A stretch of DNA of 64,000 nt from assembly GCF_028641065.1 (NCBI RefSeq), contig NC_073409.1, positions 20,398,001 to 20,462,000 on the forward strand. Reading direction: 5' to 3'. The notes beneath the pieces were generated by a model, which saw only the letters and a list, made by a program, of their open reading frames with translations, made no database searches and was not told where the DNA came from. This DNA is from Leucoraja erinacea. Taxonomy: Eukaryota. The translations under genes were made by a program, and so were the position numbers. Positions 3,010 through 38,576 of the stretch are shown here, in pieces; the stretch's first letter is position 1; every line of letters starts with the position of its first letter.

Positions 3010-4400
3010 ATGCAAAAAAAGTAATGATGGAAGTGTAAGGTGTGAAAAGCAGGCATCAAAGAGGACGGATATCAAGGGGACAAATTGTACGGGATTAGGG
3101 AACTGTAACATTGGAGTCTGTGCTTGAGTCTGTGGCGTCATGCCCAATGCGTAGGTGTGTGAGAGCTGGCTGGCGCCTGGACTCAGCACGGAAGGACGAA
3201 GTGGTTTAGCGGTGAAGCTAGTTTACAGCAGCATTACCCTAATCGGGATCGTTAAAACAGCTCTCAGTCTTCATCGGAGATCAGGCGAACACTGCAACAA
3301 ACGCAAGTGTGTATGTGAAACCCGCAACAAAACATGGGATAGACACAAAAAGCTGGAGTATCTCAGCGGGCCTTGAGAAAATGAACAGCTCGAGACACTT
3401 CTTCAGACAAAACATGGGTTTCAGTTTAAAGCGTAAAAGTAAAAACACAGTGAAATGGACCAGAAATGGAATAATGTATTTGGAATATTGACTATTGAGT
3501 GAAATCTGGGGCGTAGAAATGCGCGTGCATGGAGAATATAAAATATATGTGTTTTAGATAATATCGAGTATGAAAAAAATAAGCTCTCGGCAAGTTTGTT
3601 CAAGAAAAAAAGAAAATTAAATATTGCTATTCGTTGCCGAAACTGTAATTAGAAAGCATGCATTGTTACAACACAGAGACGGTGGAGAATTTGGAAGTGT
3701 TTTCAACTTACATACCTTGGGTATCAGTGAATTCGATGTAACCTGAATGTTAGAAAGATGTGACTGCGATGGGACTTGAACTCGCGGCTGCAGTGCCTTC
3801 ACCCGCTGCTGAATTAGCAGTGAAACAATCTCCTTCACTGGAGCCTCGGTCTCTGCGACCGCTTCCAGTCCCTACAAGAAAACAAAACGCCGGCCCCCCA
3901 CACCTTGCTCACGTCCTCGAGTAACACAGGAAAAGACTTCCGAATAAATACAACACCCAAGTACCCGCCCTCAAACTGTATCTAAAAATAACCGCAAATA
4001 TGAAAGCTCATTTGGTAAATACAATCGCGATGGAAGTTTCCTTTCCAATGTCGCTGAGATTTCAATCACGGGAAAGTGATCAACGATTTTCAGTTGATGG
4101 GGATAAATTCTAAGATGATCTTTGGTTGTGTAATGTTTGCTTTGATGCAATTATTTTTCATTCCGAGCTGGATGTTTGGTTGCTAATATTTTTTTTTTGT
4201 TGACAAGGACAAATTAAGTTTACTTGTTGCCTCGGAGCCAACACAAGGTTTAACCTCCTGACTCTGTTACCATAGACTTCCAGGAATACAAACTGATGAA
4301 GCGAGTTTTACATTTCCTTAATGCAAATATCAATGAACCAGATGGATTTTATAACAATCCAAAGGTTGCATGGGCTTTACATTTAAAGGTGCTTGGCAGT
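3010..4400 (-). repeat. Conserved inter-UGT block, copy 1 (contains GC-box/splice-donor module 3710-3975)
   Basis: Clearly alignable to 17430-18800, 29447-30530, 32340-33725, 55428-56720 and 59165-60243. Confidence 0.85.
3710..3975 (-). promoter_or_regulatory. Candidate promoter + non-coding first exon (GC box to AAG|GTATGT donor, exon end 3716)
   Basis: Minus strand reads GAGGGCGGG ... GATACCCAAG|GTATGTAAG; position conserved in paralogous blocks. Confidence 0.45.
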
Positions 4401-4599
4401 AGAGAGTAGTGGTGGATGAGTTTTTGTTTTGACTGGGGCACTGTGACCAGTGATGTTCCACAGGGACCAGTGCTGGGACCTTTACTGTTTGTGAATATAT
4501 AAATGATTTGGATATATAAATGAATTGAGTTTATAAATTATTTGGTGGATTGATTAATAACTTTGCAGACAAGCCAAATATTGGGCAGTTTACAAACCC

Positions 4600-4880
4600 A
4601 GCAGTTTAGTTTAGAGGTACCGTGCGGAAACAGGTCCTTTGGTCCATTGAGTTCGCGCAACCAGCGATCCGTCCACATTAACACTATCCTACACACAAAG
4701 GACAACTGACAATTTTCACCCAAGCCGATTAGCTTACACACCAGTGATCTTAGGAATGTATGAGAAAACAGGAGCACCTGGAGACATCCCATGCGGTCAC
4801 AGGGAGAACGTACAAACTCCACACAGACAGCACCCGTAGTCAGTATCAAACCCAAGTCTGCAGCTGCGCCACCGTGCCGC
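4600..4880 (-). mobile_element. tRNA-derived SINE (HE1-like)
   Basis: (TTTAG)n tail on left; SINE body; paralogous copy at 56937-57230. Confidence 0.75.
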
Positions 4881-5254
4881 ACTCTATTAATATTGATTTA
4901 TCTCATCTGAATGGATATTTTTAAGGTGGAGAATGGCAGATTCTTGATTATTACGGGTGTCAGGGGATTTGGGAAGAACGCGGGTAAAAGGGGTTGTGAG
5001 GGGAAATAGATCAGTCGTGATTGAATGGCACAGTAGTTCAATGGGCTGAAGGGCTGAATTCTGCTTCGATAACTTATGAACCAATAAACACCTTTTTCTA
5101 TTGTTAAATTGTGGTTAGTTTTCTGCCTGATTTATAGTTTAGCTCCCTGGTCAGTCAATGGATGCTGCATTCTGACAAACACATTTCACAGTTTATTCAA
5201 TGGTTATAACTCGTGTCATCTAAACTGTCCTTCCCCCTCTACTCATCGCAAACC

Positions 5255-5580
5255 GGTGGTGCAGCAGGTAGGATTGCTGTTGCATAGCACCGGAAACCAG
5301 GTGAGACCCTAAACTCTGGTACTGTCAGTGTGGAGTTTGCACGTTGGCCCTGTGACCATATGAGTTTCGCCCGGTTGCTCCGGTTTCCTCACACATGGCA
5401 AAGATGTGTGGGTTTGCAGGTTAATTGTCCTTTAAGTTGCCCCAAATGTGTCGGGAGTGGATGAGAAAGTAGGATGACATAGAACTAGTGTGAACGGGTG
5501 ATCGATGATCAGCATGGACTAGGTGGGTCGAAGGGCCTCTATCCTCGTGGTATTTCAAAACTAAACTAAACGAAACAAAT
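5255..5580 (+). mobile_element. tRNA-derived SINE (HE1-like)
   Basis: Degenerate A/B boxes, SINE body, (CTAAA)n tail; paralogous copy at 57810-58055. Confidence 0.7.
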
Positions 5581-6098
5581 AAATGGCACGAGTGCTAAGG
5601 GGCACTGTGATACAGAGAGATCTTGGATTGCAAATCCATTGCATCCTGAATGCAACAACACAAGTGCGGAGCGTAGTGAGGTCGGCATAAGGCTTGCCAT
5701 CATCTGTGGGGGCATTGAGTACAGAACGTTCCAATTCATTTTGTACATCACTTTGCCTTGGCCACATTGAGATTATTGCGTCCGTTTCCGCGTTGTATCT
5801 AAAGTGTAAAGGAGGCTCACTATGATAATGTACGACAATAATGGGGCACTGGAACGAAGGCAAACATGCTGACGGATTGAGAGTGAGAGTTGGTATGAGT
5901 GACTGGAAGAGGGAATAGTGCAGTAAAGGTCCACTCTGTCAGTGAATCACAAAGGGTTGTGCCCAGATAACCAAAGGCAACTTCATTGTGAATAACTGTC
6001 AGTAAATTTAAGGCTTCAGGAAAATGAGGTTCATCTATTTACATTTTTCATCTGCATATCAATGCACAAAGGTTATTATTTCACTCACATTTCTGGCT

Positions 6099-6104
6099 TT
6101 TATT
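6099..6104 (-). terminator. Candidate polyadenylation signal of UGT-A
   Basis: AATAAA ~110 nt after the stop, conserved at 16077, 23565 and 38686 in paralogous 3' UTRs. Confidence 0.5.
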
Positions 6105-6213
6105 AGCCCATGTTGAATCCATGTTTTGTGGAAAGGAGACTCCGTGGATCAAAGGCATGAAAAACTTTATTTGATTAATTTGAAATAACAAAATATACCA
6201 AGGGAAAAAAATC

Positions 6214-7812
6214 TCACTCAGTTTTTTGCTTTTTCCCACAAACACTACAACAAAGTTTCTTCAGTATTCCAACCACCAACACAGTGAGCAGGAGTAACAC
6301 AGACAACAGAAAGATCATCACATCTACACAATAGTAAGCGTACCAGGGGAGTCGGTGGGATTCTGAGCGCAAATGCCCCGCTCCTTTGTGTCGGGCAACG
6401 TACTCAACCCAGAAAACGGCTCTCTCCATTGGCGACTCTGGCTGGTCCCGATGGAGAGCGGAGAGTCTCTTCATGTTGTCCCCATAAGATGCGCCGTTTA
6501 ACACCTCGTTGAGTGCCTGCAACAGATCTCTGGAGTGCATGGTTGCAATGTTGATCACTTTTGCTGCTCCTCGGGATTCGAGTCTGACTACATTGTCAAA
6601 CTGGTCAAAAAACAGAGGCATGCCGATCACTGGCACCCCATGGTAGATGGCTTCATAAATCCCATTGGTGCCTCCGTGTGAAACAAAGGCTCGTGTGTTG
6701 GGGTGACCCAGCAGGTCGTTCTGAGGGATCCATTTTGCCAGCAGTGTATTATTCCCTATATTGGGAGGGGTCTCACCATCATATCTCCAGATAACCTTCT
6801 GGGGGATTTGAGATAAAGCGTCTGCTATTTTCATTGTAATCTCCATTGGCAAGGAATTGACCAGAGTCCCCATTGACATTACAACAAGTCCATGTTTACC
6901 TGAGCTTTGGACAAACTCCTCAAACTCTGCTGCCAGAGGCCGTGCTGGTTTACACTGGAAGCCTCCGATGTACACAAAGTTTGGCATGGTGGGTCTTGGG
7001 AATTCAAACACAAAATCCACCCTCATCAGCCACACATCGGCTCTGAGGAGAATCGACTTGAAGTCTGTGTCTGGTCCCAGATACCGATGGCAGATTTCAT
7101 TATAAAGTGGATGTATCAAAAACTCTACAATCAGCAGCTCATTAAGAGTTTGCAGGACATTTTGTGATCTTTGCAGAATATTCATCTTGTCTGTCAAATG
7201 TGAGCCAGTGCGTGGGATGTATGAAGGTGGTGAGGGGGCAGTGAGTAAATGACCTTCCCCACCAACTTGCCATCGAACGTTGTACACCAGCGGCAGTTTT
7301 AAATAATAAGCAAGCATTGAACCCATACCGAATGCCGGATCTGTAAGTATTAACTCAAAATTTGCATTTCCAAGTTGGTTCAACAAGCTATTGTTTTCGA
7401 ATAATGCTTTGATAATCTCTTTCGCCCATTGATGATACTCAAACATAAACATCAACATTTCATATTGGAGATTAATTTTGCCCCAGACTGTTGAGCCTTT
7501 CTGTAGGTTTTCTAATGTTATTTGTACAATATTTTCCAAAAGGTTGTAATTTTCAGATTCTCTTGGCATTTGAATCATAATGGATTGATACAAGTCTGGG
7601 CTCTCTTTGATATACAAGGACGTTGACTGACTGAGCACAGTGATGCTGTGGCCACGAAGGTTCAGCTCTTCTATCAAACATTTCATATTGATCCAGTGAC
7701 TCCCATCAACAGGCACGACCAATATTCTAGCTGCTCGGGTAATTGGACAAGACAAGGTGATGGTGACGCAAAGAACAAATGCAAATCTGCCTTTCCATCC
7801 AGGATTACCCAT
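6214..7812 (-). CDS. ugt5: UDP-glucuronosyltransferase, UGT5-like, single coding exon (copy A, 532 aa)
   Basis: Signal peptide, catalytic His in DGSHW, LTDP Asp, UDPGT signature WIPQNDLLGH..HGGTNG..DQ, C-terminal TM helix and KKQKTE dilysine ER signal; ATG at 7812 aligns with the starts of the other copies. Confidence 0.93.
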   Translation of the reverse strand: MGNPGWKGRFAFVLCVTITLSCPITRAARILVVPVDGSHWINMKCLIEELNLRGHSITVLSQSTSLYIKESPDLYQSIMIQMPRESENYNLLENIVQITLENLQKGSTVWGKINLQYEMLMFMFEYHQWAKEIIKALFENNSLLNQLGNANFELILTDPAFGMGSMLAYYLKLPLVYNVRWQVGGEGHLLTAPSPPSYIPRTGSHLTDKMNILQRSQNVLQTLNELLIVEFLIHPLYNEICHRYLGPDTDFKSILLRADVWLMRVDFVFEFPRPTMPNFVYIGGFQCKPARPLAAEFEEFVQSSGKHGLVVMSMGTLVNSLPMEITMKIADALSQIPQKVIWRYDGETPPNIGNNTLLAKWIPQNDLLGHPNTRAFVSHGGTNGIYEAIYHGVPVIGMPLFFDQFDNVVRLESRGAAKVINIATMHSRDLLQALNEVLNGASYGDNMKRLSALHRDQPESPMERAVFWVEYVARHKGAGHLRSESHRLPWYAYYCVDVMIFLLSVLLLLTVLVVGILKKLCCSVCGKKQKTE

Positions 7813-7838
7813 GCTGGAAATAGAAAATAGCACCGATC

Positions 7839-7868
7839 CTGTTGCAGAATTGACGAGACACGTTAGTA
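7839..7868 (-). promoter_or_regulatory. Branch point + 3' splice acceptor for UGT-A coding exon
   Basis: TACTAAC (7862-7868) then ..CTGCAACAG|GATC; exon would start at 7838, 26 nt before the ATG, the same spacing as in copies C, D and E. Confidence 0.7.
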
Positions 7869-8176
7869 AGCAACACACATTGGCAAAAAACAACATTTAG
7901 AAACAGCTGTGTGTTTTCTTGACATTACATTAAGCAAATCAAATGTGTGTCATAGAGTCATACAGTGTGGAAACAGGACCTTCAGCCCAACATACCCACA
8001 TCGACCAACTACACCAGACCCACCTGCTTGCGTTGAACCCATATCCTTGTCCTATCCACGTACTTGTCTAACTATTCCTTCAACATTGCGAAAGTTCCTG
8101 CCTCAACGACATGCTCCGGCAGTTCGTGCCTTCGGTGCATTCGTATTCCAATTTGGACGTCATGCAAATATGAATT

Positions 8177-9590: not shown

Positions 9591-10409
9591 TACTGGGACA
9601 TTTTGCATGAACCGACATCCCTCTCCATTGATGTGTCCCGGGGGTTGCTCCTGCAGCCGACATTGAAGGCGCTGGAGGCAATATCACGGTTTAACCCGGC
9701 CCACTCCTAGCGTCCGACGTCTCCACACAGAATGATCAGAGAATCACAGCTTCCAGCACAATGACTTGGCCGCTGGGTCGTTTGCTGATTTGTGGTGCTC
9801 TGTAATGTTTGTCTATCTCACCTTCTGGGGGTGAGTGAAATGTGCCAAATATTTTTTTTTTGCGGTGAACTCAACTGATCTCAGATCAGTTAGTACCAGA
9901 TATTTGTTGCAGAAGACAAAATGTCACGTCGACTACCTTATATTATTAAATAAACGGTTTAGCTTCGGGTTCTTTCTTGAGAATTTAGGAGAACTGCTGA
10001 AGTGAAAAATACTAGATATTGTTGTTTGCAGCATTGGGAGTTAGATCAGCATTTGAGGCTGAGGTGTTGTCCCGCTGCAGGCAATATTAAACAATTCTAA
10101 ATTCGCAAGGAAGGTCCCCACACAAAACCACCTATTTCTGTCCTCCACAGATGCTGCCTAACATGCTGAATCACTCCAGTACTTGGTGTTCCACGTAAGC
10201 AGTTCCTTGAATCTCCACAATCCTTTTTTTGTTAGATTAGCAGGCAACTTCCGTTTCCAACCTCACTGGCCTGTGGTTATAAAGGCTCTGTTTAATTAGT
10301 CTTTGTGGTTTGAAACAAATGCATCTTGTGTATTATTCGACAGAACCCGGAAAGCGAGAGCTTTCTTCTGTCTTGTTCAGGATCGCACATAATGTGGAGC
10401 AGAGTATGC

Positions 10410-11611: not shown

Positions 11612-12178
11612 TGTGATGCGCTCCCTCTGCTGGTGTTAATTATGTACTAACCCGTTTCTCTGATTTCCATTAGTACCTCCTGCTGCCTGGCTGCTCCTGT
11701 ACCTGATTGGAGGCTTCTGGCCCAAGCTGCACCACGTGAGCCTGATGACTGAGCCTCAGCTTAAAAAGACCATGTGCACTGGCAGTCTCTCTCTGTCTCT
11801 CTCTTCCCCCTCAGACTGGTGGCAGCAGTCTGGTGTTGGTTTAGTTTGTTTGATTGCATAGTGTTCTTTATGTAGCTCTTCATTCTGTATTAACTTATTT
11901 TGCTTGGGAAGGATGGGACTGGCATTATTGTTTTTGTGGTTTTGTTTCAGATTTATTTTCACACTGAGGCAGGTTTAGAGTCTCTGGTCCGACGGCCCAT
12001 TGAGTGGTCAGCCAGAGCACCCTTTATCTTTTGTTTGCTAGCCCATCCGACCCCTCTTTGTTTGTTTGATCCAGGTTTAGTTCTTTTTGTTAGTGAAAAA
12101 TAAATAATTTTTCCATTTGAACCTGGTTTTGTATTATGTTATTGGCCTTTGAGGTATTTGATTTTGGCGGCCGTAACA
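11612..12178 (+). repeat. 5' LTR
   Basis: TGTGATGC...CCGTAACA, direct repeat of 13380-13890, contains AATAAA. Confidence 0.88.
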
Positions 12179-12184
12179 TAATTA

Positions 12185-12196
12185 TGGGGGCTCGTT
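12185..12196 (+). other. Primer-binding site, tRNA-Pro type
   Basis: TGGGGGCTCGT(T) just after the LTR matches the tRNA-Pro PBS TGGGGGCTCGTCC. Confidence 0.8.
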
Positions 12197-12345
12197 CAAA
12201 CTTTTGAGTAAACCCTAGACGTTTTGTGTACTTTGATAGGCTTTGGTTGAGCAGTGGTAGTCTGTTTGTGTAATCATTTTTTCTTCTTTGTGGTTCTAGT
12301 AACCTGTTGTTTTGGCTATTTTGGTAGCATTTGTGAGCGGGAAAA

Positions 12346-13205
12346 ATGGAATTTAAGGTGGAAGAGTTTGTTGAGGCTCCTAGCCTAGAGATGTTTGATC
12401 GCTGTACTAAGGACAATTTAGTGTTGCTTGCAGATAACTATGGCGTTTCTATTAATAAACAAGCAAAAAAACAGTCAATTAAGACGTTGTTAAGGACTGC
12501 TTTGGTTGAGAAAGAGGTGTTGCCTGGTAGTACTGACAGTCATAAATCTCCTATACAGCTAGTTCAGAACATGGAGGTCGTCATTAAACTGAAGGAGATG
12601 GAGCTTGAGTCACAGAGAATGGCCTTAAAAGAGAAAGAGCTCATGCATGCTCATGATCTTGAAATGAAACGGCTTGAGCTTGAGGAGGAAACCAAAAGGG
12701 CTGAATTTCAGCTGCGGGAGAAAGAATGAGATATTTCCCATCTCTTCTAAAGAGCATGAGTTTGATGTGAGCAGAAATATTCGTTTGGTTCCACCATTCA
12801 GTGAAAAAGCTGTTGATAAATATTTCACGGTGTTTGAGCGTGTGGCTATATCACTGAAATGGCCTAAGGACGTCTGGACATTGCTGTTGCAATGCGTCCT
12901 TGTAGGTAAAGCGCGTGAGGTATATTCGTCATTGCCTGTAGACAATAGCCTTGACTATGAAATTGTAAAATCTGCCGTCCTCAGAGCGTATGTGTTGATT
13001 CCCGAAGCGTATGGCCAAAAATTCCGGCGTTTCAGAAAATATGATAACCAAACATATGTTGAATTTGCTGGCGAAAAGGAGGCTCTGTTTGAACGCTGGT
13101 GTGCTTCTCAGGGGGTAAAAGATTTTGCCCAGTTAAAGTCCTTGATGATATTGGAGGATTTTAAAAACTGTCTTCCTGAAAGAGTGACAACATATTTTAA
13201 TGAGC
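12346..13205 (+). pseudogene. gag: gag (SCAN-like capsid region), frameshifted near 12725 and truncated
   Basis: VPPFSEKAVDKYF..FERVA..LKWP..W..LLQ..L.GKA..Y...YE.VK.AVLRAY..IPEAY.QKFR, typical of Gmr1-type gag. Confidence 0.8.
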
Positions 13206-13206
13206 T

Positions 13207-13296
13207 GGAGTTTACAGTTGCAGGGCTACAATCTGGAGGTCAGGCATATCCGTGGCAGGGATAATGTCTTGGCTGACGCATTGTCGCGCCAGTGAT
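13207..13296 (+). pseudogene. pol RNase H C-terminal remnant
   Basis: Translates WSLQLQGYNLEVRHIRGRDNVLADALSRQ-stop, followed by the PPT and LTR. Confidence 0.75.
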
Positions 13297-13379
13297 GTCT
13301 GAACTACTAAATAGTTTCTGAAATTTGGCGGTGGTCTTATTTTATTTTCAGAAGCATATTCAGTAACTTAGGGTGGGGG

Positions 13380-13890
13380 TGTTATGCTCTCCTTCTGCTG
13401 GTGTTAATTATGTACTAACCTGTTTCTCTGATTTCCATTAGTACCTCCCGCTGCCTGGCTGCTCCTGTACCTGATTGGAGGCTCCTGGCCCAAGCTGCAT
13501 CACGTGAGCCTGATGATGGAGCCTCAGCTTAAAAAGACCATGCGCACTGGCAGTCTGTCTCTCTGTCTCTCTCTTCCCCCTCAGGCTGGTGGCAGCAGTC
13601 TGGTGTTGGTTTAGTTTGTTTGATTGCATAGTGTTCATTATGTAACTTTTCATTCTGTATTAACTTATTGTGCTTGGGAAGGATGGGATTGGCACTATTG
13701 TTTTCCTGGTTTTGTTTCGGGTTTATTTTCACACTGAGGCAGGTTAAGTCTCTGGTCCGACGGCCCATTGAGTGGTAAGCCAGAGCACCCTTTATCTTTT
13801 GTTTGCTAGCTCATCCAACCCCCCTTTGTTTGTTTGATCCAGGTTTAGTTCTTTTTGTTAGTGAAAAATAAATAATTTTTCCATTTGAAC
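13380..13890 (+). repeat. 3' LTR (last ~57 bp missing)
   Basis: Preceded by PPT AGGGTGGGGG; breaks off at CCATTTGAAC and joins UGT sequence. Confidence 0.85.
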
Positions 13891-17190: not shown

Positions 17191-17429
17191 GTACCGTATA
17201 CAGGGATTTCCCGGGTTATGTAAGTGTTGGTCTAAAATACTCAGACTGCTCGGTTTGTAAACTGCCCTTTTTTGTGTTGTCTGCAAACTTACTAATCAAC
17301 CCACCAAATTATTTAATAACTCAAATCATTTATATACCCAAATCATTTATGGACCCTGTGGACCAGTGCCCTAGTCAAAACAAAAACTCATCCACCACTA
17401 CTCTCTACTGCCAAGCAGCGTTTGAATGT

Positions 17430-18800
17430 AAAGCCCATACAATCTCTGGATTGTTATGAAATACACCTGGTTCATTGATATTTTTATTAAGGAAATGTAA
17501 AAATCGCTTCATCAGTTTGTATTCCTGGAAGTCTGGGGTAACAGAGTCAGGAGGTTAAACTTTGTGTTGACTCCGAGGCAACAAGTCAACTGAATTTGTC
17601 CTTGATAAAAAAATATTGCCAACCAAAAATGTTATGCAGCTCGGAATGAAAACTAGACGTAGCAAAGCAAACATTACACAACCAAAGCTCTTCTGAGACC
17701 TTGTCCCCATCAACTGAAAATCGTTGATAATTTTGATTGAAATCTCAGCGACATTGGAGAGGAAATTTCCATCGAGATTGTATTTCGCAAATGAACTTTC
17801 ATACTTGCGGTTATTTTTTGACACATTTTGGGGGCGGGTCCATTGGTGTTGTATTTGTCCGTAAGTATTTTCCTGTGTTACTCGTGGGCAAGTGAGCTAG
17901 ATGTGAGGGGGCCGGAGTTTTGTTTTCTTGTGGGGACTGGAAGCGATCGCAGAGTCCCAGACTCAAGCGAAGGAGATTGTTTCATTGGTAATTCAGCAGC
18001 GGGTGAAGGCACTGCAGCCGCGGGTTCAAGTCCCATCGCAGTCACATCTTTCTGACATTCAGGTTACATCGAATTCACTGATACCCAAGGTATGGAAATT
18101 GAAAACATTTCCAAATTCTCCACCATCTCTGTGTTGTATCAATGCAGGCTTTCTATTTACAGTTTCGACAACGAATAGCCATATTGAAAATTATTTTTTC
18201 CTTTAACAAACTTGCCAAGAGCTTATTTTGTTTCATGCAACATTTGTTCTCATGTTTCCCCTCGTATCTCGGTTCATCACCAATGGTTTTCATACTGGAT
18301 ATTATCTAAACACATATATTTTGTATCCTCCATACACACACATTTCTACTCCCCAGATTTCACTCAATAGTCAATATTCCAAATTCAATATTCCATTCCC
18401 GGCCCATTTGATTGCTTTTGCTTTTACTTGCTTTAAACTGAAGCCCATGTTTTGTCTGAAGAAGTGTCTCGACCCGTTCCTTCTCTCCAGAGATCTTGCC
18501 TGGCCCGCTGAGATACTCCAGATTTTTGTGTCTATCCCATGTTTTGTTGTGGGCTTCGCATACACACTTGCGTTTGTTGCAGTGTTCGCCTGATCTCTGA
18601 GGAAGAATGAGAGCTGTTTTAACGATCCCGATGTTCGCTGACAAGGGTAATGCTGTTGTAAACTAGCTTAATCGCTAAACCACTTCATCCTACCGTGCTG
18701 AGGCCAGGCGCAGGCTCTTACAGTTCACTAATCCCATACAACTTGTTTCCTTCATATCCGTCCCCTTTGATGTCTTGTTTTCACACCTTACCGTTCTGTC
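17430..18800 (+). repeat. Conserved inter-UGT block, copy 2
   Basis: Reverse-complement match to 3010-4400. Confidence 0.85.
17830..18095 (+). promoter_or_regulatory. Candidate promoter + non-coding first exon for UGT-C (donor after 18089)
   Basis: GGGGGCGGG GC box at 17830, CpG-retaining stretch, CCCAAG|GTATGG donor. Confidence 0.45.
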
Positions 18801-18801
18801 G

Positions 18802-20900
18802 TTACAATAGACAATAGGTGCAGGAGTAGGCCATTCGGCCCTTCGAGCCAACATCCAGAGAACCTGCTTCCACCGCCCTCTGAGGCAGATAATTCCACAC
18901 ACTCACCTCTCTGTGAGAAAAAGTGTTTCCTCATCTCCATTCTAAATTGCTTACCCCTTATATTTAAACTGCGCCCCTGGTTCTGGACTCCCCCAACATC
19001 GGGAACATGTTTCCTGCCTCAAGCGTGTCCGAACCCTTAACAATCTTATATATTTCAATAAGATCTCCTCTCATCCTTCTAAACTCCAGAGTGTACAAGC
19101 CCAGCTGCTTCATTTTCTCAGCATGTGGCAGTCCTGCCATCCTGGGAATTAACCTTGTAAACCAATGCTGCACTCCCTCGATAACAAGAATGTCCTTCCT
19201 CAAATTAGGGGACCAAAACTGCACTCCAGGTGTGGTCTCACTAGGGCTCTGTACAACTGCAGAAGGACCTCTTTGCTCCTATAATCGACGCCACTTGTGA
19301 TAAAGGTCAACGTGACATTCGCTTTCGTCACTGCCTGCTGTACCTGCATGCTTCCATTCACAGACTGAAGAACAAGGACAGCCAGATCCCGTTGTACTTC
19401 CCCTTTTCCCAAATTGACACCATTTAGATAGTAATCTGCCTTCCTGTTTTTGCTACCAAAGTGGATAGCCTCACATTTATCCACATTAAACGTCATCTGC
19501 CATGCAACTGCCCACTCCCCTAACCTGTCCAAGTCACCCTGCATTCTCATAGCATCCTCCTCACATTTCACACTGCCACCCAGCTTTGTGTCATCTGCAA
19601 ATTTGCTCATGTTACTTTGAATCCCTTCATCCAAATCATTGATGTATATTGTAAGTAGTTGCGGTCCCAACACCGAGTTTTTGCGGTACCCCACTAGTCA
19701 CTGCCTGCCATTCTGAAAGGGACCCGTTAATCCCCACTCTGTTTCCTGTCTGCCAATCATTTTTCTATCCATGTCAGCACTCCACCCCGAATACCATGTG
19801 CCCTAATTTTTCCACTAATCTGCTATGTGGGACCTTATCAAATGCTTTCTGAAAGTCCAGGTACGTTACATCCACTGGCTCTCCCTTGTTCATTTTCCTA
19901 GTTACATCTTCAAAAAATTTCAGAAGATTAGTCAAGCATGATTTCCCCTTCATAAATCCATGCTAACTCGGACCAACCCTGTTACTGCTATTCAAATGTG
20001 CGGCTAATTCATCTTTTATAATTGACTCCAGCATCTTCCCCACCACCGATGTCAGGCTAACTGGTCTATAATTCCCTGTTTTCTCTCTCCCGCCCTTCTT
20101 AAATAGTGGGATAACATTAGCTACTCTCCAATCTACAGGAACTGATCCTGAGTCTATAGAACGTTGGAAAATTATCACCAATGCATCCACGATTTCTAGA
20201 GCCACTCCCTTAAGTACCCTGGGGCGCAGATCATCAGGCCCTGGGGATTTATCAGTCTTCGGTCCCATCAGTCTGCCCAACACCATTTCCTGCCTAATGT
20301 GGGTTTCCTTCAGTTCCTCTGTCACTCCAGCTCCTCTGGCCACTACTATATCAGGAAGATTGTGTCCTCCTTTGTGAAGAAGGATCCAAAGTATCTGTTC
20401 AACTCGTCCGCCATTTCCTTGATCCCCATAATAAATTCACCCTTTTCGGTCTTCAAGGGTTCAACTTTGGTCTAAACTAGTTTTTTTTTTCTCTTCACAT
20501 ACCTAAAGAAGCTTTCACTATCCTCCTTTATATTCTTCGCTAGCTTACCTTCGTACCTCATCTTTTCTCCCCGTATTGTCGTTTTGGTTATCTTCTGTTG
20601 CTCTTTAAACGTTATCCAATCCGCTGGCTTCCTGCTCATCTTTGCTATGTTGTACTTCTTCTGTTTTATTTTTATACTGTCCTTGACTTCCTTTGTCAGC
20701 CACGGTCGCCCCTTACTCCCCGTGGAATCTTTCCTCCTCCTAAGAATGAACTGATCCTGCACCTTCTGTATTGTTCTTAGAAACACCTGCCATTTTTGTT
20801 CCACTGTCATGCGTGCTAGCGTATCTTTCCAGTCAAATTTGGCCAGCTTCGCCCTCATGCCCCATAGTCCCCTTTATTCAACTGTAACACTGACACCTCC
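18802..20900 (-). mobile_element. CR1 LINE, 5'-truncated and degraded
   Basis: ORFs 20472-20858, 19963-20343, 19200-19694 and 18964-19224 give ORF2 motifs (KSPGPD, NYRPVSLTSV, KFADDTKL); CAATAGA tail. Confidence 0.92.
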
Positions 20901-21104
20901 GAGCTACCCTTCTCCATCTCCTCTTTTTTGCATACCTCTATTTCATTTGTTCTACATCTCTCTACATCACCATCTATATCTCATTTCTCCCTCTCCACTC
21001 TCAGTCTTAAGAAGGGTCTCGACCCGGAAACGTCACCCATTCCGTCTCTCCAGAGATGCTGCCTGTCCCGCTGTGTTACACCAGCATTTTGTGTCTGTGT
21101 TCAT

Positions 21105-21740
21105 CCGATAATCCACAAACAGGACAGACCTGGCAGACCCATTGTTTTTGCCTGCACCGGCCCCATAAACCTCATCTCCAAATTCCACAATTCAGGGGCA
21201 GCACGGTGGCGCAGTACTAGAGGCCTGGGTTTGATGCTGACTACAGGTGCTGTCTGTACGGAGTTTGTACGTTCTCCCCGTGACTACCAAACTCTCCACA
21301 GACGTGCAGGTTTGTAGGTTAATTGGCATCTGTAAAATGTGAATTGTGCAAAGTGATCACTGGGCTGCGCAGCCTCGGTGGACTGATGGACCTGTTTCCA
21401 CGCTGTCTCTCAAAAGTTTAAAATCCTTTTGCACTCTCAAGAGGTCCAGCTACACCTGTTATGTGTGTTGGTTATGTCAAACAGTCCGTGAACCAAGCGT
21501 ACACTGGCACCATCCCCCCAACTGTTTCTCCACATTGACGACAGCTGCCTGCACCACCCGTGCCAAACTCTTTCATTTCATCAAAATCACCACGAGGGGG
21601 ACACAGTATCCACTGACGTCTACAACATACCCACTAACCCCCACTCTTTCATTTCATCAAAATCACCACGAGGGGGACACAGTATCCACTGACGTCTACA
21701 ACATACCCACTAACCCCCACAATTATCGAGACTACACCCT
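21105..21740 (+). mobile_element. Penelope-like RT relic interrupted by a SINE (21195-21415)
   Basis: IHKQDRPGRPIV (PLE LPKIHK..PGRPIVS motif), YTGTIPQLFLHIDD, STDVYNIPTNPHNY. Confidence 0.7.
21567..21718 (+). repeat. 76-bp direct tandem duplication
   Basis: ACTCTTTCATTTCATCAAAATC...CTAACCCCC occurs twice; single in the paralog at ~36437. Confidence 0.9.
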
Positions 21741-21787
21741 TGAGATAATCCAGTATTTAGTTTTCCTTTTTGCCAATGTTTGTCACT

Positions 21788-21817
21788 TACCAACATTTCT
21801 GGTCAATTCTACCACAG
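21788..21817 (+). promoter_or_regulatory. Branch point + 3' splice acceptor for UGT-C
   Basis: TACCAAC...CTACCACAG|GATC, 26 nt before the ATG. Confidence 0.65.
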
Positions 21818-21843
21818 GATCAGTGTGATCATCTTTCCTCAAC

Positions 21844-23454
21844 ATGGGTGGTCTTGGATGGAGAAGCAGATCAAATGTCATATTTATTCTCGGTATCATC
21901 TTCGCCCTGTCTTGTCCAATTACCCAAGCAGCTAGAATATTGGTCGTGCCTGTTGATGGAAGTCACTGGATCAACATGAAAATTCTAATGGAAGAGCTGA
22001 ACCTTCGTGGCCACAACATGACTGTGCTTTGTTACTCCGCAAACTGGTACAAAGAGAGACCCGATCTGTATCAAACCATCATAGTTCAAGCACAAGAAAA
22101 CATTGAAGCACCTTCAAGGAAAGAAACGATGGACAAGTTTTTGGTAATGTCGCTGGACAGGTTACAGAATAGTCACACACTATGGGGCAACATAATGTTA
22201 CAAATTTTAATGGTTACATTTACGTACAATGTACAGAGAATTTATCAAAATTTCAACATGGCGATTTTTGAAAACAAAACCTTGTTGAATCAATTTGAAA
22301 ATGCAAACTTTGACCTAATACTCACAGATCCTATATTTGGTACCGGGCCAATGCTTGCGTATTATTTAAAAGTGCCGCTGGTGTACAACGTTCGATGGCA
22401 GATGAATGGGGAAGCCCATTTTCTCACTGCCCCGTCACCACTTTCCTACGTCCCACTCCAGAACTCACGGCTCACAGACAAAATGGATTTTCTCCAAAGA
22501 ACTGAAAATGTAATTCACAGTGTAGTTCAACACTTGCTTTCAGAATTTTTGATATTCCCACTTTATAATGGAATCTGCCATCGGTATCTGGGACCAGACA
22601 CGGACATCAAGTCGATTCTCCTCAGAGCTGATGTGTGGCTGATGAGGGTGGATTTTGTGTTTGAATTCCCAAGACCCACCATGCCAAACATTGTGTACAT
22701 CGGAGGCTTCCAGTGTAAACCAGCACGGCCTCTGGCAGCAGAGTTTGAGGAGTTTGTCCAAAGCTCAGGTAAACATGGACTTGTTGTAATGTCATTGGGG
22801 ACCTTTATCCACTCTTTACCAATGGAGATTACAATGAAAATAGCAGAAGCTTTATCTCAAATCCCTCAGAAGGTTATCTGGAAATATGATGGTGAGACCC
22901 CTCCCAAGATAGGGAATAATACACTGCTGGCAAAATGGATCCCTCAGAACGACCTGCTGGGTCACCCCAACACACGAGCCTTTGTTTCACACGGAGGCGC
23001 CAATGGGATTTATGAAGCCATCTACCATGGGGTGCCAGTGATCGGCATGCCTCTGCTTTTTGACCAGTTTGATAATTTACTCAAGCTCGAATCCCGAGGA
23101 GCAGCAAAAGTGATCAACATTGCAACCGTGCATTCTACAGATCTGTTGCAGGCACTCAACGAGGTGATAAACGACGCATCTTATGGGGACAACATGAAGA
23201 GACTCTCCGCTCTCCATCGGGACCAGCCAGAGTCGCCAATGGAGAGAGCCGTTTTCTGGGTTGAGTACGTTGCCCGACACAAAGGAGCAGGGCATTTGCG
23301 CTCAGAATCCCACCGACTCCCCTGGTACGCTTACTATTGTGTAGATGTGATGATCTTTCTGTTGTCTGTGTTACTCCTGCTCACTGTGTTGGTGGTTGGA
23401 ACACTGAAGAAACTTTGTCGTATTGTTTGTGGGAAAAAGCAAAAGACGGAGTGA
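21844..23454 (+). CDS. ugt5: UDP-glucuronosyltransferase, UGT5-like, single coding exon (copy C, 536 aa)
   Basis: Intact ORF with signal peptide, DGSHW, UDPGT signature, TM helix and KKQKTE. Confidence 0.95.
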   Translation: MGGLGWRSRSNVIFILGIIFALSCPITQAARILVVPVDGSHWINMKILMEELNLRGHNMTVLCYSANWYKERPDLYQTIIVQAQENIEAPSRKETMDKFLVMSLDRLQNSHTLWGNIMLQILMVTFTYNVQRIYQNFNMAIFENKTLLNQFENANFDLILTDPIFGTGPMLAYYLKVPLVYNVRWQMNGEAHFLTAPSPLSYVPLQNSRLTDKMDFLQRTENVIHSVVQHLLSEFLIFPLYNGICHRYLGPDTDIKSILLRADVWLMRVDFVFEFPRPTMPNIVYIGGFQCKPARPLAAEFEEFVQSSGKHGLVVMSLGTFIHSLPMEITMKIAEALSQIPQKVIWKYDGETPPKIGNNTLLAKWIPQNDLLGHPNTRAFVSHGGANGIYEAIYHGVPVIGMPLLFDQFDNLLKLESRGAAKVINIATVHSTDLLQALNEVINDASYGDNMKRLSALHRDQPESPMERAVFWVEYVARHKGAGHLRSESHRLPWYAYYCVDVMIFLLSVLLLLTVLVVGTLKKLCRIVCGKKQKTE

Positions 23455-24877
23455 GATTTTTTTCCCCTTGGTATATTTTGTTCTTTCAAATTAATCAAAT
23501 AAAGTTTTTCATGCCTTTGATCCACGGAGTCTCCTTTCCACAAAACATGGATTCAACATGTGCTAATAAAAGCCAGAAAGGTGAGTGAAATAATAACCTT
23601 AGTGCTTGATATGCAGATGAAAAGTGTAAATGGCTGAACCTCATTTTCCTGAAGGCTTAAATTTACTGACAGTTATTCACAATGAAGTTACCTTTGGTTA
23701 TCTGGGCACAACCCTTTGTGATTCACTGACAGAGTGGACCTTTACTGCACTATTCCCTCTTCCAGTCAACCATGCCAAATCTCACTCTCAATCTGTCAGC
23801 ATGTTTGCCTTCGTTCCAGTGCCCCATTATTGTCGTACATTATCATAGTGAGCCTCCTTTACACTTTAGATACAATGTGGAAACAGACCCTTCGGCCCAT
23901 TCAGTCCGCGCTGTCCAGCGATCACTCCACACACAAGATAGACACAAAACGCTGCAGTAACTCAGCGGGTCAGGCAGCATCACTGGAGATAAAGATTATG
24001 TGACGTTTCTAGTAAGAATCCTTCCCAGACCCCATACACTAGCATTAACCTACACATTATGGACAATATACAACATTTTAACCATAGCTAATTAAACCAC
24101 AAGCCTGTATTTTGAGGGTTGGAGGAAACCGGAGCATGCGGAGAAAACCGCATGACAGCGCACTCTCCACTCTTCACTCTACTCCATAACCATTATGTGA
24201 TGTGGTGACCAGAAGTGCACACAGTAATCTAAATGTGGGCAAGGCAAAGTGATGTACAAAATGAATTGGAACTTTCTGTACTCAATGCCCCCACAGTATG
24301 CCGTCCTCACTACCCTCCCCACTCGTGTTGTTATATTCAGGATGTAATGGATTTGTAATCCAAGATCTCTCTGTTTCGCAGTGCCACTTACTGTTTAGTT
24401 TAGTTTTGTGATACCACGTGGATACGGGCCCGTCAGCCCACCGAGTTGACCAGCGATCTCCGCACACTAACAGTAGCCTGCACAAGCTATGGACAATTTA
24501 CAATTTGCCTCCAAACCTGTACGTCTTTTGAGTGTGGGAGGAAACCGGATCTCCTGTGGAAAGCCCACGACGGTCACGGGGAGAACGCACAATCTCCTTG
24601 CAGACAGCACGCATAGACAGGATTGAACCTGGGTCCCTGGCGTTGTAATCAGCAGTTCGGGTTATGTAAGGGTTGGTCTAAAATACTAATACTGCTGGGT
24701 TTGTAAACTGCCCAATTTCTGTGTTGTCTGCAAACTTACTAATCAACCCACCAAATTATTTATAAACTCAAATCATTTAAATATCCCAATCATTTATATA
24801 TTCACAAACAGTAAAGGTCCCAGCACTGGTCCCTGTGGAACAACACTGGTCACAGTGCCCCAGTCCAAACACAAACT

Positions 24878-27800: not shown

Positions 27801-29446
27801 TCTCTCACACCCCTTGCTGCTGACTCATGAAGACTCATCCATGCCTTCATCTCCTCCCGACAGGACTACTGCAACTCACTTCTCCTTGGCATCAGCTCCA
27901 GCTACATCAACCGACTCCAACTGGTCCAGAACGCAGCCGCCCGACTTATCACCCACACCAAATCCTGGCACCACATCACTCCAGTCCTCAAACAACTTCA
28001 CTGGCTTCCCATTTCCCACCGGATCACCTACAAAATCCTGGTCCTCACCTACAAAGCCCTCCACCATCTGGCCCCCCCATATCTCACTGACCTCCTCTCC
28101 CCCTACCAATCCTCCCGGTCCCTCAGATCCACATCAGCCGGTCTCCTCTCCATCCACAAATCCCCCTCACCGAGGAGGAGGAGCCATCTTGGGGAACGGC
28201 TGCTAACCAGCAGCCGTCCGCTTAATTCATTTTTTTCAGTTTTTAGTTAGTTTTGTTCGTCGTTTTTCCGGAGAAATGGACTTCTTATTGTGGGGGGAAG
28301 AAGGTAACCTTACTTCTAGGTCCCTACCTGGTCGGTGAGGCAGCTTTTTCTCTGGGCTGCCCGTCGACCCGTCCTCGTTGCCTATCAGCGGGCTTGGAGC
28401 GCCATTTCGTGGTGGGAACCGCCCAGCACCTCGGCTTCGTTGGTGGCACAGCGCTGGAGCACCATCGCGGAGCGGGCGATGCCTTGCCTGGGTCGCCGCG
28501 CTGGATCGACGTGCTGGAGCTCCGGTGAGCTGGACCGCCGAGAGCAACACCTCCGGGCTGCGCGTCTGCGGGCGGCGCCGACATTAACATCGGGAGCCTG
28601 GGAGCTCCAACTCGGTGCGTCCTTGTCGGCTTCGGAAGCCGACAATCCCCTGCTAGGAAGCGGCCGTTCCAGGTGGCCCAGCCGCTGTGAGGACTCACCC
28701 GATGCCGGGGCAAGACCACCCGGCTAGAACGGCCAGGAACATCGGGCCTCCGTTGAGGCAACAGCGGTGGCCTTAATAGGCCTGACTTTTGGGAGAACTG
28801 GGGTTGGGGACTGGACTTTTGTGCCTTCCCCCACAGTGGTAACCACTTAGGGGGGATGATTTTTCTGTGTGTAAAGTACTTTGTTAGTCTGTGTCCAAGA
28901 TGGCTGCTATGAAGGGAGAGTGGACGCTAGCGCGCTTTAGCTGCCTCTGCTCTCTCTTCACATTGTGTTTTTATTTATTTTTATATTTTGTATCTTTAAT
29001 AATTTGTGTGTTGATGATGTCCTTATTATTTATTTTTCTCCGACTATATATATTTTTTTCTCTTCTGTTTAATCTTTGTAAGGTGACCTTGAGATTTGAA
29101 AGGCGCCTGATAATAAAATTTATTACTATTATTATTATTAAATCCAATCTCTGCAGTTTTGGGGACAGAGCCTTCTCCAGGGCAGCTCCCAGGCTCTGGA
29201 ACTCCCTTCCCCAACTGATCCGCAATTCTGAGTCCCTCACCATCTTCCAGTCCCGCCTCAAGACCCATCTCTTCACCTCTGCTTATCCTTAGCCTCACGT
29301 CCCCCTCCCTTTACATCTGTGCTTGAATTGTTGCTCATTTTTTGGTTTGTTTTGTTTTGTATTTGTTTTTGTTTTTGTTTCTTGCCTTGTAAAGCGACTT
29401 TGAGCTTGAAAAGCGCTATATAAAATCAATTAATTGTTATTATTAT
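24878..29446 (+). mobile_element. L2-clade LINE, near full ORF2, degraded, with nested insertion
   Basis: APE motifs (LLLTETW, LGDLNIH, THDKGHILDLV, SDHKL), RT motifs (PTTCSLDP, AAFDTV, LKLNSDKTE), TGTAAAGCGACTTTGAG..AAAAGCGCTATATAAA end and (TAT)n tail. Confidence 0.92.
28164..29139 (+). mobile_element. GC-rich non-autonomous retroelement with L2-like tail, nested in L2
   Basis: AAATCC TSD (28158-28163 / 29140-29145), (ATT)n tail, L2-type 3' end TGTAAGGTGACCTTGAG..GAAAGGCGCC. Confidence 0.75.
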
Positions 29447-30530
29447 TAACTTTCATACTTGCGGTTATTTTTAGATACTGTTTGGGGGCGGGTACTTTGG
29501 TGTTGTATTTGTCCGCAAGTATTTACCTTACTCGCTGGCAAGTGAACAACGTGTGAGGGGGCTGGCGTTTTGTTTTCTTGTGGGGACTGGAAGCGGTCCA
29601 GTGTCCCAGGCTCCAGTGAAGGAGATTGTTTCACTGGCAATTCAGCAGCGGGTGAAGGCACTGCAGCTTCAGGTTCAAGTCCCATCGCAGTCACATCTTT
29701 CTGACATTCAGGTTACATCAAATTCACTGATACCCAAGGTATGTAAGTTGAAAACACTTCCAAATTCATTACCATCTCGGTGTTGTATCAATGCATGCTT
29801 TCTATTTATCATTTTGGCAATGAATAGCAATATTGAAATTTATTTTTATCTTGAACAAACTTGCCGAGAACTTATTTTGTTTCATGCAACATTTGTTCTC
29901 ATGTTTTCCCTCGTATCTCGGTTCATCACCAATGGTTTTCATACTGGATATTAGCTAAACACATATATTTTGTATCCTCCATACACACACATTTCTACTC
30001 CCCAGATTTCACTCAATAGTCAATATTCCAAATCCATTATCCCATTCCCAGCCTATTTGACTGTTTTTGCTTTTACTTGCTTTAAACTGAAGCCCATGTT
30101 TTGGCTGAAGAAGTGTCTCGACCTGTTCCTCCTCTCCAGAGATCTTGCCTGGCCCGCTGCGATACTCCAGATTTTTGTGTCTATCCCATGTTCTGTTGTG
30201 GGCTTCGCATACACACTTGCGTTTGTTGCAATGTTCCCCTGATCTCTGATGAAGAATGAGAGCTGTTTTAACGGTCCCGATGTCCGCTGACAAGGGTAAT
30301 GCTGTTGTAAACTAGCTTAATCGCTAAACCACTTCATCCTTCCGTGCTGAGGCCAGGCGCCTGCCCAGCTCTCACACCTAGGCATTGGCCATGACTCCAC
30401 GGACTCAAGCAGACTCCAATTTTACAGTCCTCTAATCCCATACAACATGTTTCCTCGATATCCGCCCCATTGATGTCTCTTTTTCACACGTTACCCTTCC
30501 ACCATTAGTTTTTTGCATATCTCCATTTCA
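29447..30530 (+). repeat. Conserved inter-UGT block, copy 3 (GC box ~29484, donor after 29738)
   Basis: Matches 17795-18800; CCCAAG|GTATGTAAG donor. Confidence 0.85.
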
Positions 30531-32339: not shown

Positions 32340-33725
32340 AACGTTTGAATGTAAAGCCCATACAATCTCTGGATTGTTATTAAATCCACCTGGTTCATTG
32401 ATATTTTTATTAAGGAAATGTAAAAATCGCTTCATCAGTTTGTATTCCTGGAAGTCTAGGGTAACAGAGTCAGGAGGTTAAACTTTGTGTTGACTCCGAG
32501 GCAACAAGTAAACTGAATTTGTCCTTGATAAAAAAAATATTGCCAACCAAAAATGTTATGCAGCTCGGAATGAAAACTAGACGTAGCAAAGCAAACATTA
32601 CACAACCAAAGCTCTTCTGAGACCTTGTCCCCATCAACTGTAAATCTTTGATAATTTTGATTGTAATCTCAGCGACATTGGAAAGGAAATTTCCATCGAG
32701 ATTGTATTTCGCAAATGAACTTTTGTACTTGCGGTTATTTTTTTGACACATTTTGGGGGCGGGTCCGTTGGTGTTGTATTTGTCCGTAAGTATTTTCCTG
32801 TGTTACTCGTGGGCAAGTGAGCTAGATGTGAGGGGGCCGGAGTTTTGTTTTCTTGTGGGGACTGGAAGCGGTCGCAGAGTTCCAGGCTCCAGTGAAGGAG
32901 ATTGTTTCACTGGTAATTCAGCAGCGGGTGAAGGCACTGCAGCCGCGGGTTCAAGTCCCATCGCAGTCACATCTTTCTGACATTCAGGTTACATCGAATT
33001 CACTGATACCCAAGGTATGTCAATTGAAAACATTTCCAAATTCTCCACCATCTCTGTGTTGTATCAATGCATGCTTTCTATTTACAGTTTCGACAACGAA
33101 TAGCTATATTGAAAATTATTTTTTCCTTTAACAAACTTGCCAAGAGCTTATTTTGTTTCATGCAACATTTGTTCTCATGTTTTCCCTCGTATCTCGGTTC
33201 ATCACCAATGGTTTTTCATACTGGATATTATCTAACCACATATATTTTGTATCCTCCATACACACACATTTCTACTCCCCAGATTTCACTCAATAGTCAA
33301 TATTCCAAATTCAATATTCCATTCCCGGCCCATTTGATTGCTTTTGCTTGTACTTGCTTTAAACTGAAGCCCATGTTTTCTCTGAAGAAGTGTCTCGACC
33401 CGTTCCTTCTCTCCAGAGATCTTGCCTGGCCCGCTGAGATACTCCAGCTTTTTGTGTCTATCCCATGTTTTGTTGTGGGCTTCGCATACACACTTGCGTT
33501 TGTTGCAGTGTTCACCTGATCTCTGAGGAAGAATGAGAGCTGTTTTAATGATCCCGATGTTCGCTGACAAGGGTAATGCTGTTGTAAACTAGCTTAATCG
33601 CTAAACCACTTCATCCTACCGTGCTGAGGCCAGGCGCAGGCTCTTACATTTCACTAATCCCATACAATTTGTTTCCTTCATATCCGTCCCCTTTGATTTA
33701 TCGTTTTCACACCTTACCGTTCTGT
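32340..33725 (+). repeat. Conserved inter-UGT block, copy 4 (GC box ~32755, donor after 33014)
   Basis: Near-identical to 17420-18800; CCCAAG|GTATGT donor. Confidence 0.85.
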
Positions 33726-36965: not shown

Positions 36966-38576
36966 ATGGGTGGTCTTGGATGGAGAAGCAGATCAAATGT
37001 CACATTTGTTCTCGGTATCATCTTCGCCCTGTCTTGTCCAATTACCCAAGCAGCTAGAATATTGGTCGTGCCTGTTGATGGAAGTCATTGGATCAATATG
37101 AAAATTCTATTGGAAGAGCTGAACCTTCGTGGCCACAACATGACTATGCTTTGTTACTCCGCAAACTGGTACAAAGAGAGACCCGATCTGTATCAAACCA
37201 TCATAGTTCAAGCACAAAAAAACATTGAAGCACCTTCAAGGAAAGAAACGATGGAATTTGTTTTGGTAATGTCGCTGGACAGGTTACAGAATAGTCACAC
37301 ACTATGGGGCAACATAATGTTACAAATTTTAATGGTTACATTTACGTACAATGTACAGAGAATTTATCAAAATTTCAACATGGCGATTTTTGAAAACAAA
37401 ACCTTGTTGAATCAATTTGAAAATGCAAACTTTGACTTAATACTCACAGATCCTATATTTGGTACCGGGCCAATGCTTGCGTATTATTTAAAAGTGCCGC
37501 TGGTGTACAACGTTCGATGGCAGATGAATGGGGAAGCCCATTTTCTCACTGCCCCGTCACCACTTTCCTACGTCCCACTTCCTGGCTCACTTCTCACAGA
37601 CAAAATGGATTTTCTCCAAAGAACTGAAAATATAATTCACAGTGTAGTTCAACACTTGCTTTCAGAATTTTTGATATTCCCACTTTACAATGAAATCTGC
37701 CATCGGTATCTGGGACCAGACACAGACTTCAAGTCGATTCTCCTCAGAGCTGATGTGTGGCTGATGAGGGTGGATTTTGTGTTTGAATTCCCAAGACCCA
37801 CCATGCCAAACATCGTGTACATCGGAGGCTTCCAGTGTAAACCAGCACGGCCTCTGGCAGCAGAGTTTGAGGAGTTTGTCCAAAGCTCAGGTAAACATGG
37901 ACTTGTTGTAATGTCATTGGGGACCTTTGTCAACTCTTTACCAATGGAGATTACAATGAAAATAGCAGAAGCTTTATCTCAAATCCCCCAGAAGGTTATC
38001 TGGAGATATGATGGTGAGACCCCTCCCAATATAGGGAATAATACACTGCTGGCAAAATTGATCCCTCAGAACGACCTGCTGGGTCACCCCAACACACGAG
38101 CCTTTGTTTCACACGGAGGCGCCAATGGGATTTATGAAGCCATCTACCATGGGGTGCCAGTGATCGGCATGCCTCTGCTTTTTGACCAGTTTGACAATTT
38201 ACTCAAGCTCGAAGCCCGAGGAGCAGCAAAAGTGATCAATGTTGCAACCGTGCATTCTACAGATCTGTTGCAGGCACTGAACGAGGTGATAAACGACGCA
38301 TCTTATGGGGACAACATGAAGAGACTCTCCGCTCTCCATCGGGACCAGCCAGAGTCGCCAATGGAGAGAGCCGTTTTCTGGGTTGAGTACGTTGCCCGAC
38401 ACAAAGGAGCGGGGCATTTGCGCTCAGAATCTCACCGACTCCCCTGGTACGCTTACTATTGTGTAGATGTGATGATCTTTCTGTTGTCTGTGTTACTCCT
38501 GCTCACTGTGTTGGTGGTTGGAACACTGAAGAAACTTTGTTGTATTGCACTGAAGAAAAAGCAAAAGACGGAGTGA
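36966..38576 (+). CDS. ugt5: UDP-glucuronosyltransferase, UGT5-like, single coding exon (copy D, 536 aa)
   Basis: Intact ORF, closest paralog of copy C; carries W-to-L at the start of the UDPGT signature (LIPQNDLLGH). Confidence 0.93.
   Translation: MGGLGWRSRSNVTFVLGIIFALSCPITQAARILVVPVDGSHWINMKILLEELNLRGHNMTMLCYSANWYKERPDLYQTIIVQAQKNIEAPSRKETMEFVLVMSLDRLQNSHTLWGNIMLQILMVTFTYNVQRIYQNFNMAIFENKTLLNQFENANFDLILTDPIFGTGPMLAYYLKVPLVYNVRWQMNGEAHFLTAPSPLSYVPLPGSLLTDKMDFLQRTENIIHSVVQHLLSEFLIFPLYNEICHRYLGPDTDFKSILLRADVWLMRVDFVFEFPRPTMPNIVYIGGFQCKPARPLAAEFEEFVQSSGKHGLVVMSLGTFVNSLPMEITMKIAEALSQIPQKVIWRYDGETPPNIGNNTLLAKLIPQNDLLGHPNTRAFVSHGGANGIYEAIYHGVPVIGMPLLFDQFDNLLKLEARGAAKVINVATVHSTDLLQALNEVINDASYGDNMKRLSALHRDQPESPMERAVFWVEYVARHKGAGHLRSESHRLPWYAYYCVDVMIFLLSVLLLLTVLVVGTLKKLCCIALKKKQKTE

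Follow-up and report, generated by a model that had tools for sequence, protein, structure and literature searches.

Ugt5 genes of the UDP-glucuronosyltransferase (UGT) superfamily have a single coding exon preceded by 5' non-coding exons, which are shared among Ugt5a1-4 and among Ugt5b1-4 and private in Ugt5c (Huang and Wu 2010; PMC2819257). That paper reports the family from teleosts and amphibians and makes no mention of sharks. In the vertebrate Ugt1 and Ugt2a clusters, diverse N-terminal substrate halves are joined by splicing to one shared constant exon set encoding a near-invariant C-terminal half, and gene conversion is reported as not predominant in Ugt1 and Ugt2 (PMC1885805). We analysed a window of 64,000 nt (G000:C33:20398001-20462000) in the 2.19-Gb genome of Leucoraja erinacea, in which a conserved block recurs between single-exon UGT genes. 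We report that this block is a non-coding first exon spliced to the coding exon of one class of these genes, here called class B, a statement that holds for the gene class and not for any single copy.

The cluster, delimited by a genome search and 364 kb of surrounding DNA, spans 20.24-20.53 Mb of the contig and contains several broken genes and 14 uninterrupted open reading frames (ORFs) of 532-537 aa. Each ORF is complete within one exon, as in Ugt5; the skate genes share the diverse N-terminal and near-invariant C-terminal halves of Ugt1 and Ugt2a, but each has its own C-terminal half in place of a common constant exon set (PMC1885805). Alignment of the 5' halves sorted the ORFs into four classes, which we label A (two intact), B (nine intact and one frameshifted), C (two) and D (one). 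Four intact genes lie in the window and are named by start codon and strand (7812-, 21844+, 36966+ and 51538-). The 21844 ORF encodes a full-length UGT (PF00201, E 6.5e-159, residues 31-534); the C-terminal domain matches human UGT2B structures, and hydrophobic termini, as a signal peptide and a C-terminal membrane anchor would give, are visible in the alignment. All four genes have a branch point (TACTAAC or TACCAAC) followed by CAG^GATC (the caret marks the exon boundary) and a 26-nt leader, as a sequence-only reading of this DNA had claimed for every intact UGT.

Like zebrafish Ugt5c1-3 and the single Ugt5d, Ugt5e and Ugt5f genes, the class-B skate genes combine clustering, a one-exon ORF, a short leader and an own 5' non-coding exon; the Ugt5c first exons share no similarity, whereas the 12 skate copies, probably duplicated along with their genes, are about 90% alike (PMC2819257). 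Zebrafish Ugt5a1-4 and Ugt5b1-4 likewise place a non-coding exon ahead of single coding exons in tandem, but there the coding exons alone were duplicated behind one promoter, while in the skate cassette and gene were probably duplicated together and in both orientations (same source). The statement in the sequence-only reading that teleost Ugt5 genes have one coding exon and upstream non-coding exons agrees with this account, and the layout here is the same.

Splicing of the block to the class-B coding exon

Five public sequence runs (X1, X3, X4, X18 and X24) were compared over positions 17200-23700 and 3580-7900, four runs per region. The block had been proposed as an exon 1 spliced to intronless UGT genes, with 18089>21818 as a junction to look for. 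Exactly this joint, with 3728 bases skipped and GT..AG ends, was present in X18 and X1. In X18 it was carried by one 1867-nt contig (17892-18087 joined to 21816-23425) with 196 nt on the short side; in X1 it was carried by two contigs with only 22 nt on the short side, under the 31-nt guide value. In the region 3580-7900, one contig each from X18 and X3 ran from the exon through 89 unmatched letters into the coding region, and the length of this gap would fit a class-B leader plus start. A block-to-UGT joint was seen in three of the five runs, which come from three studies and bear three organism codes. These contigs bear out the proposed splicing at the level of the class. Ugt5-type genes have at least one 5' non-coding exon, and the X1, X18 and X3 contigs show one for class B only.

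Several observations weigh against this reading. The three runs that carry the joint (X1, X3 and X18) are not recorded as RNA, and no joint was present in X4 or X24 among the joints listed (15 of 174 and 15 of 51, respectively). X24, the sole raw poly(A) run and from another organism, gave sense reads on the exon (17790-18089) and on the 3' coding half (22625-23492) and none on the 5' halves of class A or class B. Class-B units hardly differ in their junction sequence, and the pairing of particular copies cannot be read from the contigs; contigs can also be mosaics, and in the X18 contig the final 61 letters (beyond 23425) disagree with the 21844 gene. Outside class B, the predicted class-A cassette described below has no RNA support here, no first-exon cassette was found in 9 kb upstream of the 7812 gene, and an upstream-region comparison and a motif scan found no class-C or class-D first exon.

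Confinement and composition of the block

Were the block a dispersed transposon, or passively duplicated DNA, it need have no part in UGT transcripts. It contains GGTTCAAGTCCC, which we take to be tRNA-like, and it is no better conserved than the adjacent intron (mean distance 0.078 vs 0.053, seven copies), so its repetition reflects duplication; both points count for this alternative. The genomic distribution argues strongly against it. An exon 24-mer, with two mismatches allowed, gave 10 matches genome-wide, all in the UGT cluster. All ten are donor-bearing copies of the block, and the assembly therefore holds no processed copy able to mimic the joint. The DNA search, which skips common words and so leaves weight to the pattern search, returned 14 of 14 matches inside the cluster for the 301-nt block and 15 matches, all inside the cluster, for the upstream region. 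Every block match falls within 20.26-20.46 Mb of the contig; this is not the distribution of a dispersed repeat, nor of the genome-wide transposon family that the sequence-only reading had named as fatal to its proposal. Reads piled up by hundreds to thousands on the short and long interspersed nuclear element (SINE and LINE) pieces of the intron and not on the block. The spliced contigs are themselves incompatible with a passive block unless they are DNA of a processed copy absent from the assembly, and we consider this alternative extremely improbable. Three Rfam matches were far below the gathering score and were rejected, leaving no family near threshold. A tRNA or SINE origin was likewise rejected, there being no copies elsewhere in the genome; a very old origin is possible.

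All six inter-gene copies that had been described in the window are present at their places. Five have the donor GATACCCAAG^GTATG(T/G), with exon ends at 3716-, 18089+, 29738+, 33014+ and 59954-, as claimed, and the sixth carries a deletion within it as well as a damaged donor. The donor 11-mer is expected 0.02 times by chance on both strands, a figure that applies to independent events, which these duplicates are not. Across the cluster, the 12 copies comprise 10 with an exact donor, one with a near-exact donor after a deletion and one with a damaged donor. A GC box, also claimed, is present as GGGCGGG in 12 of 12. The claimed CpG retention is weak: the observed/expected CpG ratio (o/e) of the block is 0.74 against 0.51 for the window, but 19% of 260-nt tiles reach 0.74. 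Repeat background in this comparison came from 80 kb of C17 and C20. CpG-island promoters have GC above 50% and a clear CpG excess across several hundred bases. The 200-nt tiles over 17600-18199 fall short of this (GC 36-51%, o/e 0.73-1.02) and are unexceptional in the window. CpG decay across copies (0.21 in the exon, 0.25 in coding sequence, 0.32 in the intron and 0.50 in the 3' flank) leans towards protection, on 4-64 sites, and was not used as evidence.

Pairing of cassettes with coding exons

A co-oriented block lies upstream of 10 of 10 class-B coding exons, and all 12 blocks are co-oriented with and upstream of class-B exons. Two copies are extra: the one at 29738, before 33014, and the damaged copy near 56 kb, which sits between 59954 and the gene at 51538. 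Copies differ from one another at 6-26 positions in the exon and at 47-106 in class-B coding regions. The distance between two cassettes correlated with that between the genes they belong to (Mantel r 0.47, p 0.0065, nine pairs), also without the youngest copy, 33014 (r 0.38, p 0.048). The X18 contig matched the 21844 gene at 34 of 34 listed coding sites (the next-best genes at 33 and 31) and differed from the 18089 exon at five positions; only the 33014 copy is within 6 differences of that exon, the others being at least 12 away. These matches agree with cognate pairing, and the contig may be a mosaic. The pairing is most likely that of one cassette with the next coding exon downstream, which we regard as probable.

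The sequence-only reading had gone further and proposed that any cassette could splice to any coding exon. This found no support and looks unnecessary: there is one cassette per class-B gene, the distances are correlated, and class-A genes have a different predicted cassette. The premise that acceptors and leaders are interchangeable stands for the acceptors, which are similar across all classes, but not for the leaders, which are identical only within class B and differ in the 7812- gene. A promoter-by-gene matrix, with cassette transcripts reading through the first poly(A) site and splicing to a later acceptor (18089>36940, 59954>7838 or 33014>class C), is unlikely in our judgement. By analogy the idea has a published precedent in the shared exons of zebrafish Ugt5a1-4 and Ugt5b (PMC2819257). 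The likeness of the acceptors, the intact 7812 gene without its own cassette, and the X24 exon reads alongside class-C-like coding reads also speak for it. These 3' coding reads are closest to class C (3 mismatches in 27 sites vs 5-13 for class B), and the pattern could stem from low coverage (about five reads) or, in that organism, from splicing of a cassette to a divergent gene. Weighing on the other side are the single cassette per class-B gene with its correlated history, the mixed orientations, which reduce the possible pairs, and the AATAAA signals close behind the genes at 21844 and 36966. Among the joints listed in four runs, none led to the class-A acceptor 7838, a negative of little power since depth at 7350-7494 was zero in all four; X3 had one short unspliced piece across this acceptor. 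Stingray UGT isoforms X1-X5 (two distinct sequences with consecutive accessions) seemed at first to point to a shared first exon. They were rejected as evidence, since in isoform X1 two coding regions are fused into one 869-aa protein, and this fusion can account for the isoform merge.

In the arrangement that we favour, the block is the class-B first exon, spliced from CCCAAG^GT to CAG^GATC, an acceptor that precedes the ATG by 26 nt; cassette and gene would probably have been duplicated as one unit. Under a nearest-acceptor rule, a cassette would be used chiefly with the first coding exon that follows it. The spare copies 29738 and 59954 may be alternative first exons for the 36966 and 51538 genes, there being no other such acceptor in between. 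The sameness of acceptors and leaders would be a product of recent duplication and sequence exchange.

Class-A genes would use a cassette of their own. A separate candidate, with what we take to be a GC box and a TATA-like word, together with TGACTCA and a CAGTG^GTAAGG donor, occurs at three places, the donor being changed in one; BLAST detected no similarity between it and the class-B cassette. Class-A genes or remnants lie directly upstream of five blocks, and the repeated unit may often consist of a class-A gene plus a class-B gene. Of this cassette the 7812 gene retains only an inverted remnant; its first exon was apparently lost where an inversion broke the DNA, and the gene would be either silent or dependent on another exon.

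Transcription start

About five stranded sense reads of X24 lie on the exon, starting near 17790, about 40 nt before the GC box, with none further upstream; one X1 contig, whose best fit is the deleted copy at 20259729, extends to 17697, a point 135 nt ahead of the GC box. It is thus probable that the transcript contains the GC box at 17830 or starts at it, and transcription may begin near the 5' edge of the block. The proposal that the block is both promoter and exon 1 holds for the exon, through the contigs; a promoter role is weakly supported by these few reads and the one contig. The X1 contig, the modest CpG enrichment and the several non-coding exons of zebrafish Ugt5b and 5g1 (PMC2819257) would also suit an internal non-coding exon with the true promoter farther upstream. 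We think this improbable, since no joint into the block was seen among the joints listed, the contig to 17697 continues co-linear with the genome, and the X24 reads end near 17790. The 29738 and 59954 copies lack the usual upstream region; in its place stands other sequence, which ends in GCGCTATATAAAA about 35 nt ahead of the block core (29400-29445, +; 60248-60290, -). We take this ending to resemble a retroelement tail, and it might act as a TATA-like box.

Homogenised C-terminal halves

Genes of different classes diverge at fourfold sites by 0.27-0.51 over columns 1-250 and by 0.04-0.08 over columns 251-530, the latter on a par with the 0.057 within class B, with a sharp shift near codon 240. 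Half-protein trees across sharks and rays (40 rows with named shark and ray proteins) conflict, N-terminal halves grouping by class across species and C-terminal halves by lineage. In approximately unbiased (AU) tests on 20 of those rows, the grouping of all skates was rejected for the N half (p 3e-40) and, for the C half, so was a cross-species class D (p 4e-9); the tested groups were defined after viewing the 40-row result, and other species were compared by protein only. Gene conversion or unequal exchange is likely to lie behind the alike C halves: such exchange would probably maintain the likeness of the 14 C-terminal (sugar-donor) halves and leave the N-terminal (substrate) halves different from class to class. 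A constant region maintained by gene conversion inside intronless genes whose substrate halves predate the shark-ray split is, on its own, well supported, and we consider it probable. It suggests that intronless genes can reach the variable/constant design of UGT1 by recombination and not by splicing; we found no paper reporting a design so made for Ugt5. A fuller scheme, a diversity system of two layers, is unlikely: near-identical cassettes would splice past their own gene to later and promoterless exons (7812, class C), giving a promoter-by-enzyme matrix, while conversion keeps the constant region.

Relation to other UGT families

In a quick tree of 27 rows, the cluster genes, a C17 gene and ray-finned relatives formed a clade (SH-like approximate likelihood ratio test 99); five multi-exon UGTs of the skate and two proteins named UGT2 fell outside it. 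The tree contains no protein named Ugt5, and none was returned by the protein searches for relatives; no useful paper was found for the label si:ch73-334d15.1. Among RefSeq models of skates, rays and sharks named UDP-glucuronosyltransferase 2C1-like or 2A2-like, those of Leucoraja erinacea include proteins identical to cluster genes, and Amblyraja radiata has a 92% relative. These names suggest UGT2, whereas the tree places the skate genes apart from multi-exon UGT1 and UGT2. Several RefSeq models list more than one transcript per protein, and these transcripts may be 5' untranslated region variants.

No paper was found in the open-access literature that treats this cluster or reports Ugt5 from cartilaginous fish. 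The first-exon arrangement itself is already known from bony fish, and the results change no major open question. They extend the Ugt5-type layout to cartilaginous fish, so that the family would be older than the divergence of these from bony fish, and they fix the 5' structure of an expanded detoxification cluster whose genes have been misnamed.

Two further single-exon UGT groups were observed, at G000:C17:20718556-20739911 and C20:4650120-4657836. In the three genes on C17, too, CAG^G precedes the ATG by about 26 nt, and these genes group with the C33 cluster; the C20 gene forms a separate long branch.

Features of the window and its surroundings

Table 1. Features of the UGT locus (window positions unless a contig is named).
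Feature	Position	Strand	Basis or remarks
Non-coding first exon of class-B UGT, 5' end approximate	17790-18089	+	GC box 17830-17839; joint 18089>21818 in X1, X18; X24 sense reads
Intron, 3728 nt, with LINE and SINE fragments	18090-21817	+	Skipped in contigs; RVT_1 match 19203-19697 below cut-off; repeat pile-up in both directions
Single coding exon, class B, 26-nt leader, ATG 21844, 536 aa UGT	21818-23454	+	Coding 21844-23454; PF00201; AATAAA 43 and 110 nt past stop
Single coding exon, class B, ATG 36966, 536 aa	36940-38576	+	Coding 36966-38576; ORF, alignment, motifs
Single coding exon, class B, ATG 51538, 537 aa	49925-51564	-	Coding 49925-51538; ORF, alignment, motifs
Single coding exon, class A, ATG 7812, 532 aa, intact ORF	6214-7838	-	Coding 6214-7812; alignment, motifs
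Block copy, donor 3716	3606-4012	-	Partner is intact gene just left of window, G000:C33:20395046-20396650
Block copy, donor after 18089	17790-18200	+
Spare block copy, donor 29738, without own coding exon	29445-29847	+	Lacks upstream region 17250-17790; in 3.3-kb inverted duplicate of 59954 copy
Block copy, donor 33014	32714-33125	+	Nearest cassette upstream of 36966 gene; in 4.2-kb 96% duplicate of 17419-21644
Damaged block copy	56048-56347	-	Internal deletion, altered donor
Block copy, donor 59954	59845-60248	-	Nearest intact-donor cassette upstream of 51538 gene
Predicted class-A cassette	G000:C33:20248726-20249336; 20328011-20328618; 20297967-20298376		Sequence comparison; donor of the first near 20249008
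Inverted remnant, intron part of class-A cassette	9836-10100	+	Promoter-like part and donor absent
UGT fragment, 5'-truncated, with stop codons	13888-14994	+	Genome search

Two 513-nt direct repeats (94%) surround about 1.3 kb at 11612-13890, like a reduced long terminal repeat element, directly before the UGT fragment at 13888. A long reverse-transcriptase ORF (1088 aa between stops, PF00078) occupies 41556-45369 on the minus strand, and a 2-kb inverted duplicate (99.4%) at 45600-47587 and 62012-64000 contains a 397-aa open frame without a Pfam match. The PF00078 ORF and the 99.4% duplicate are young mobile elements within the cluster.

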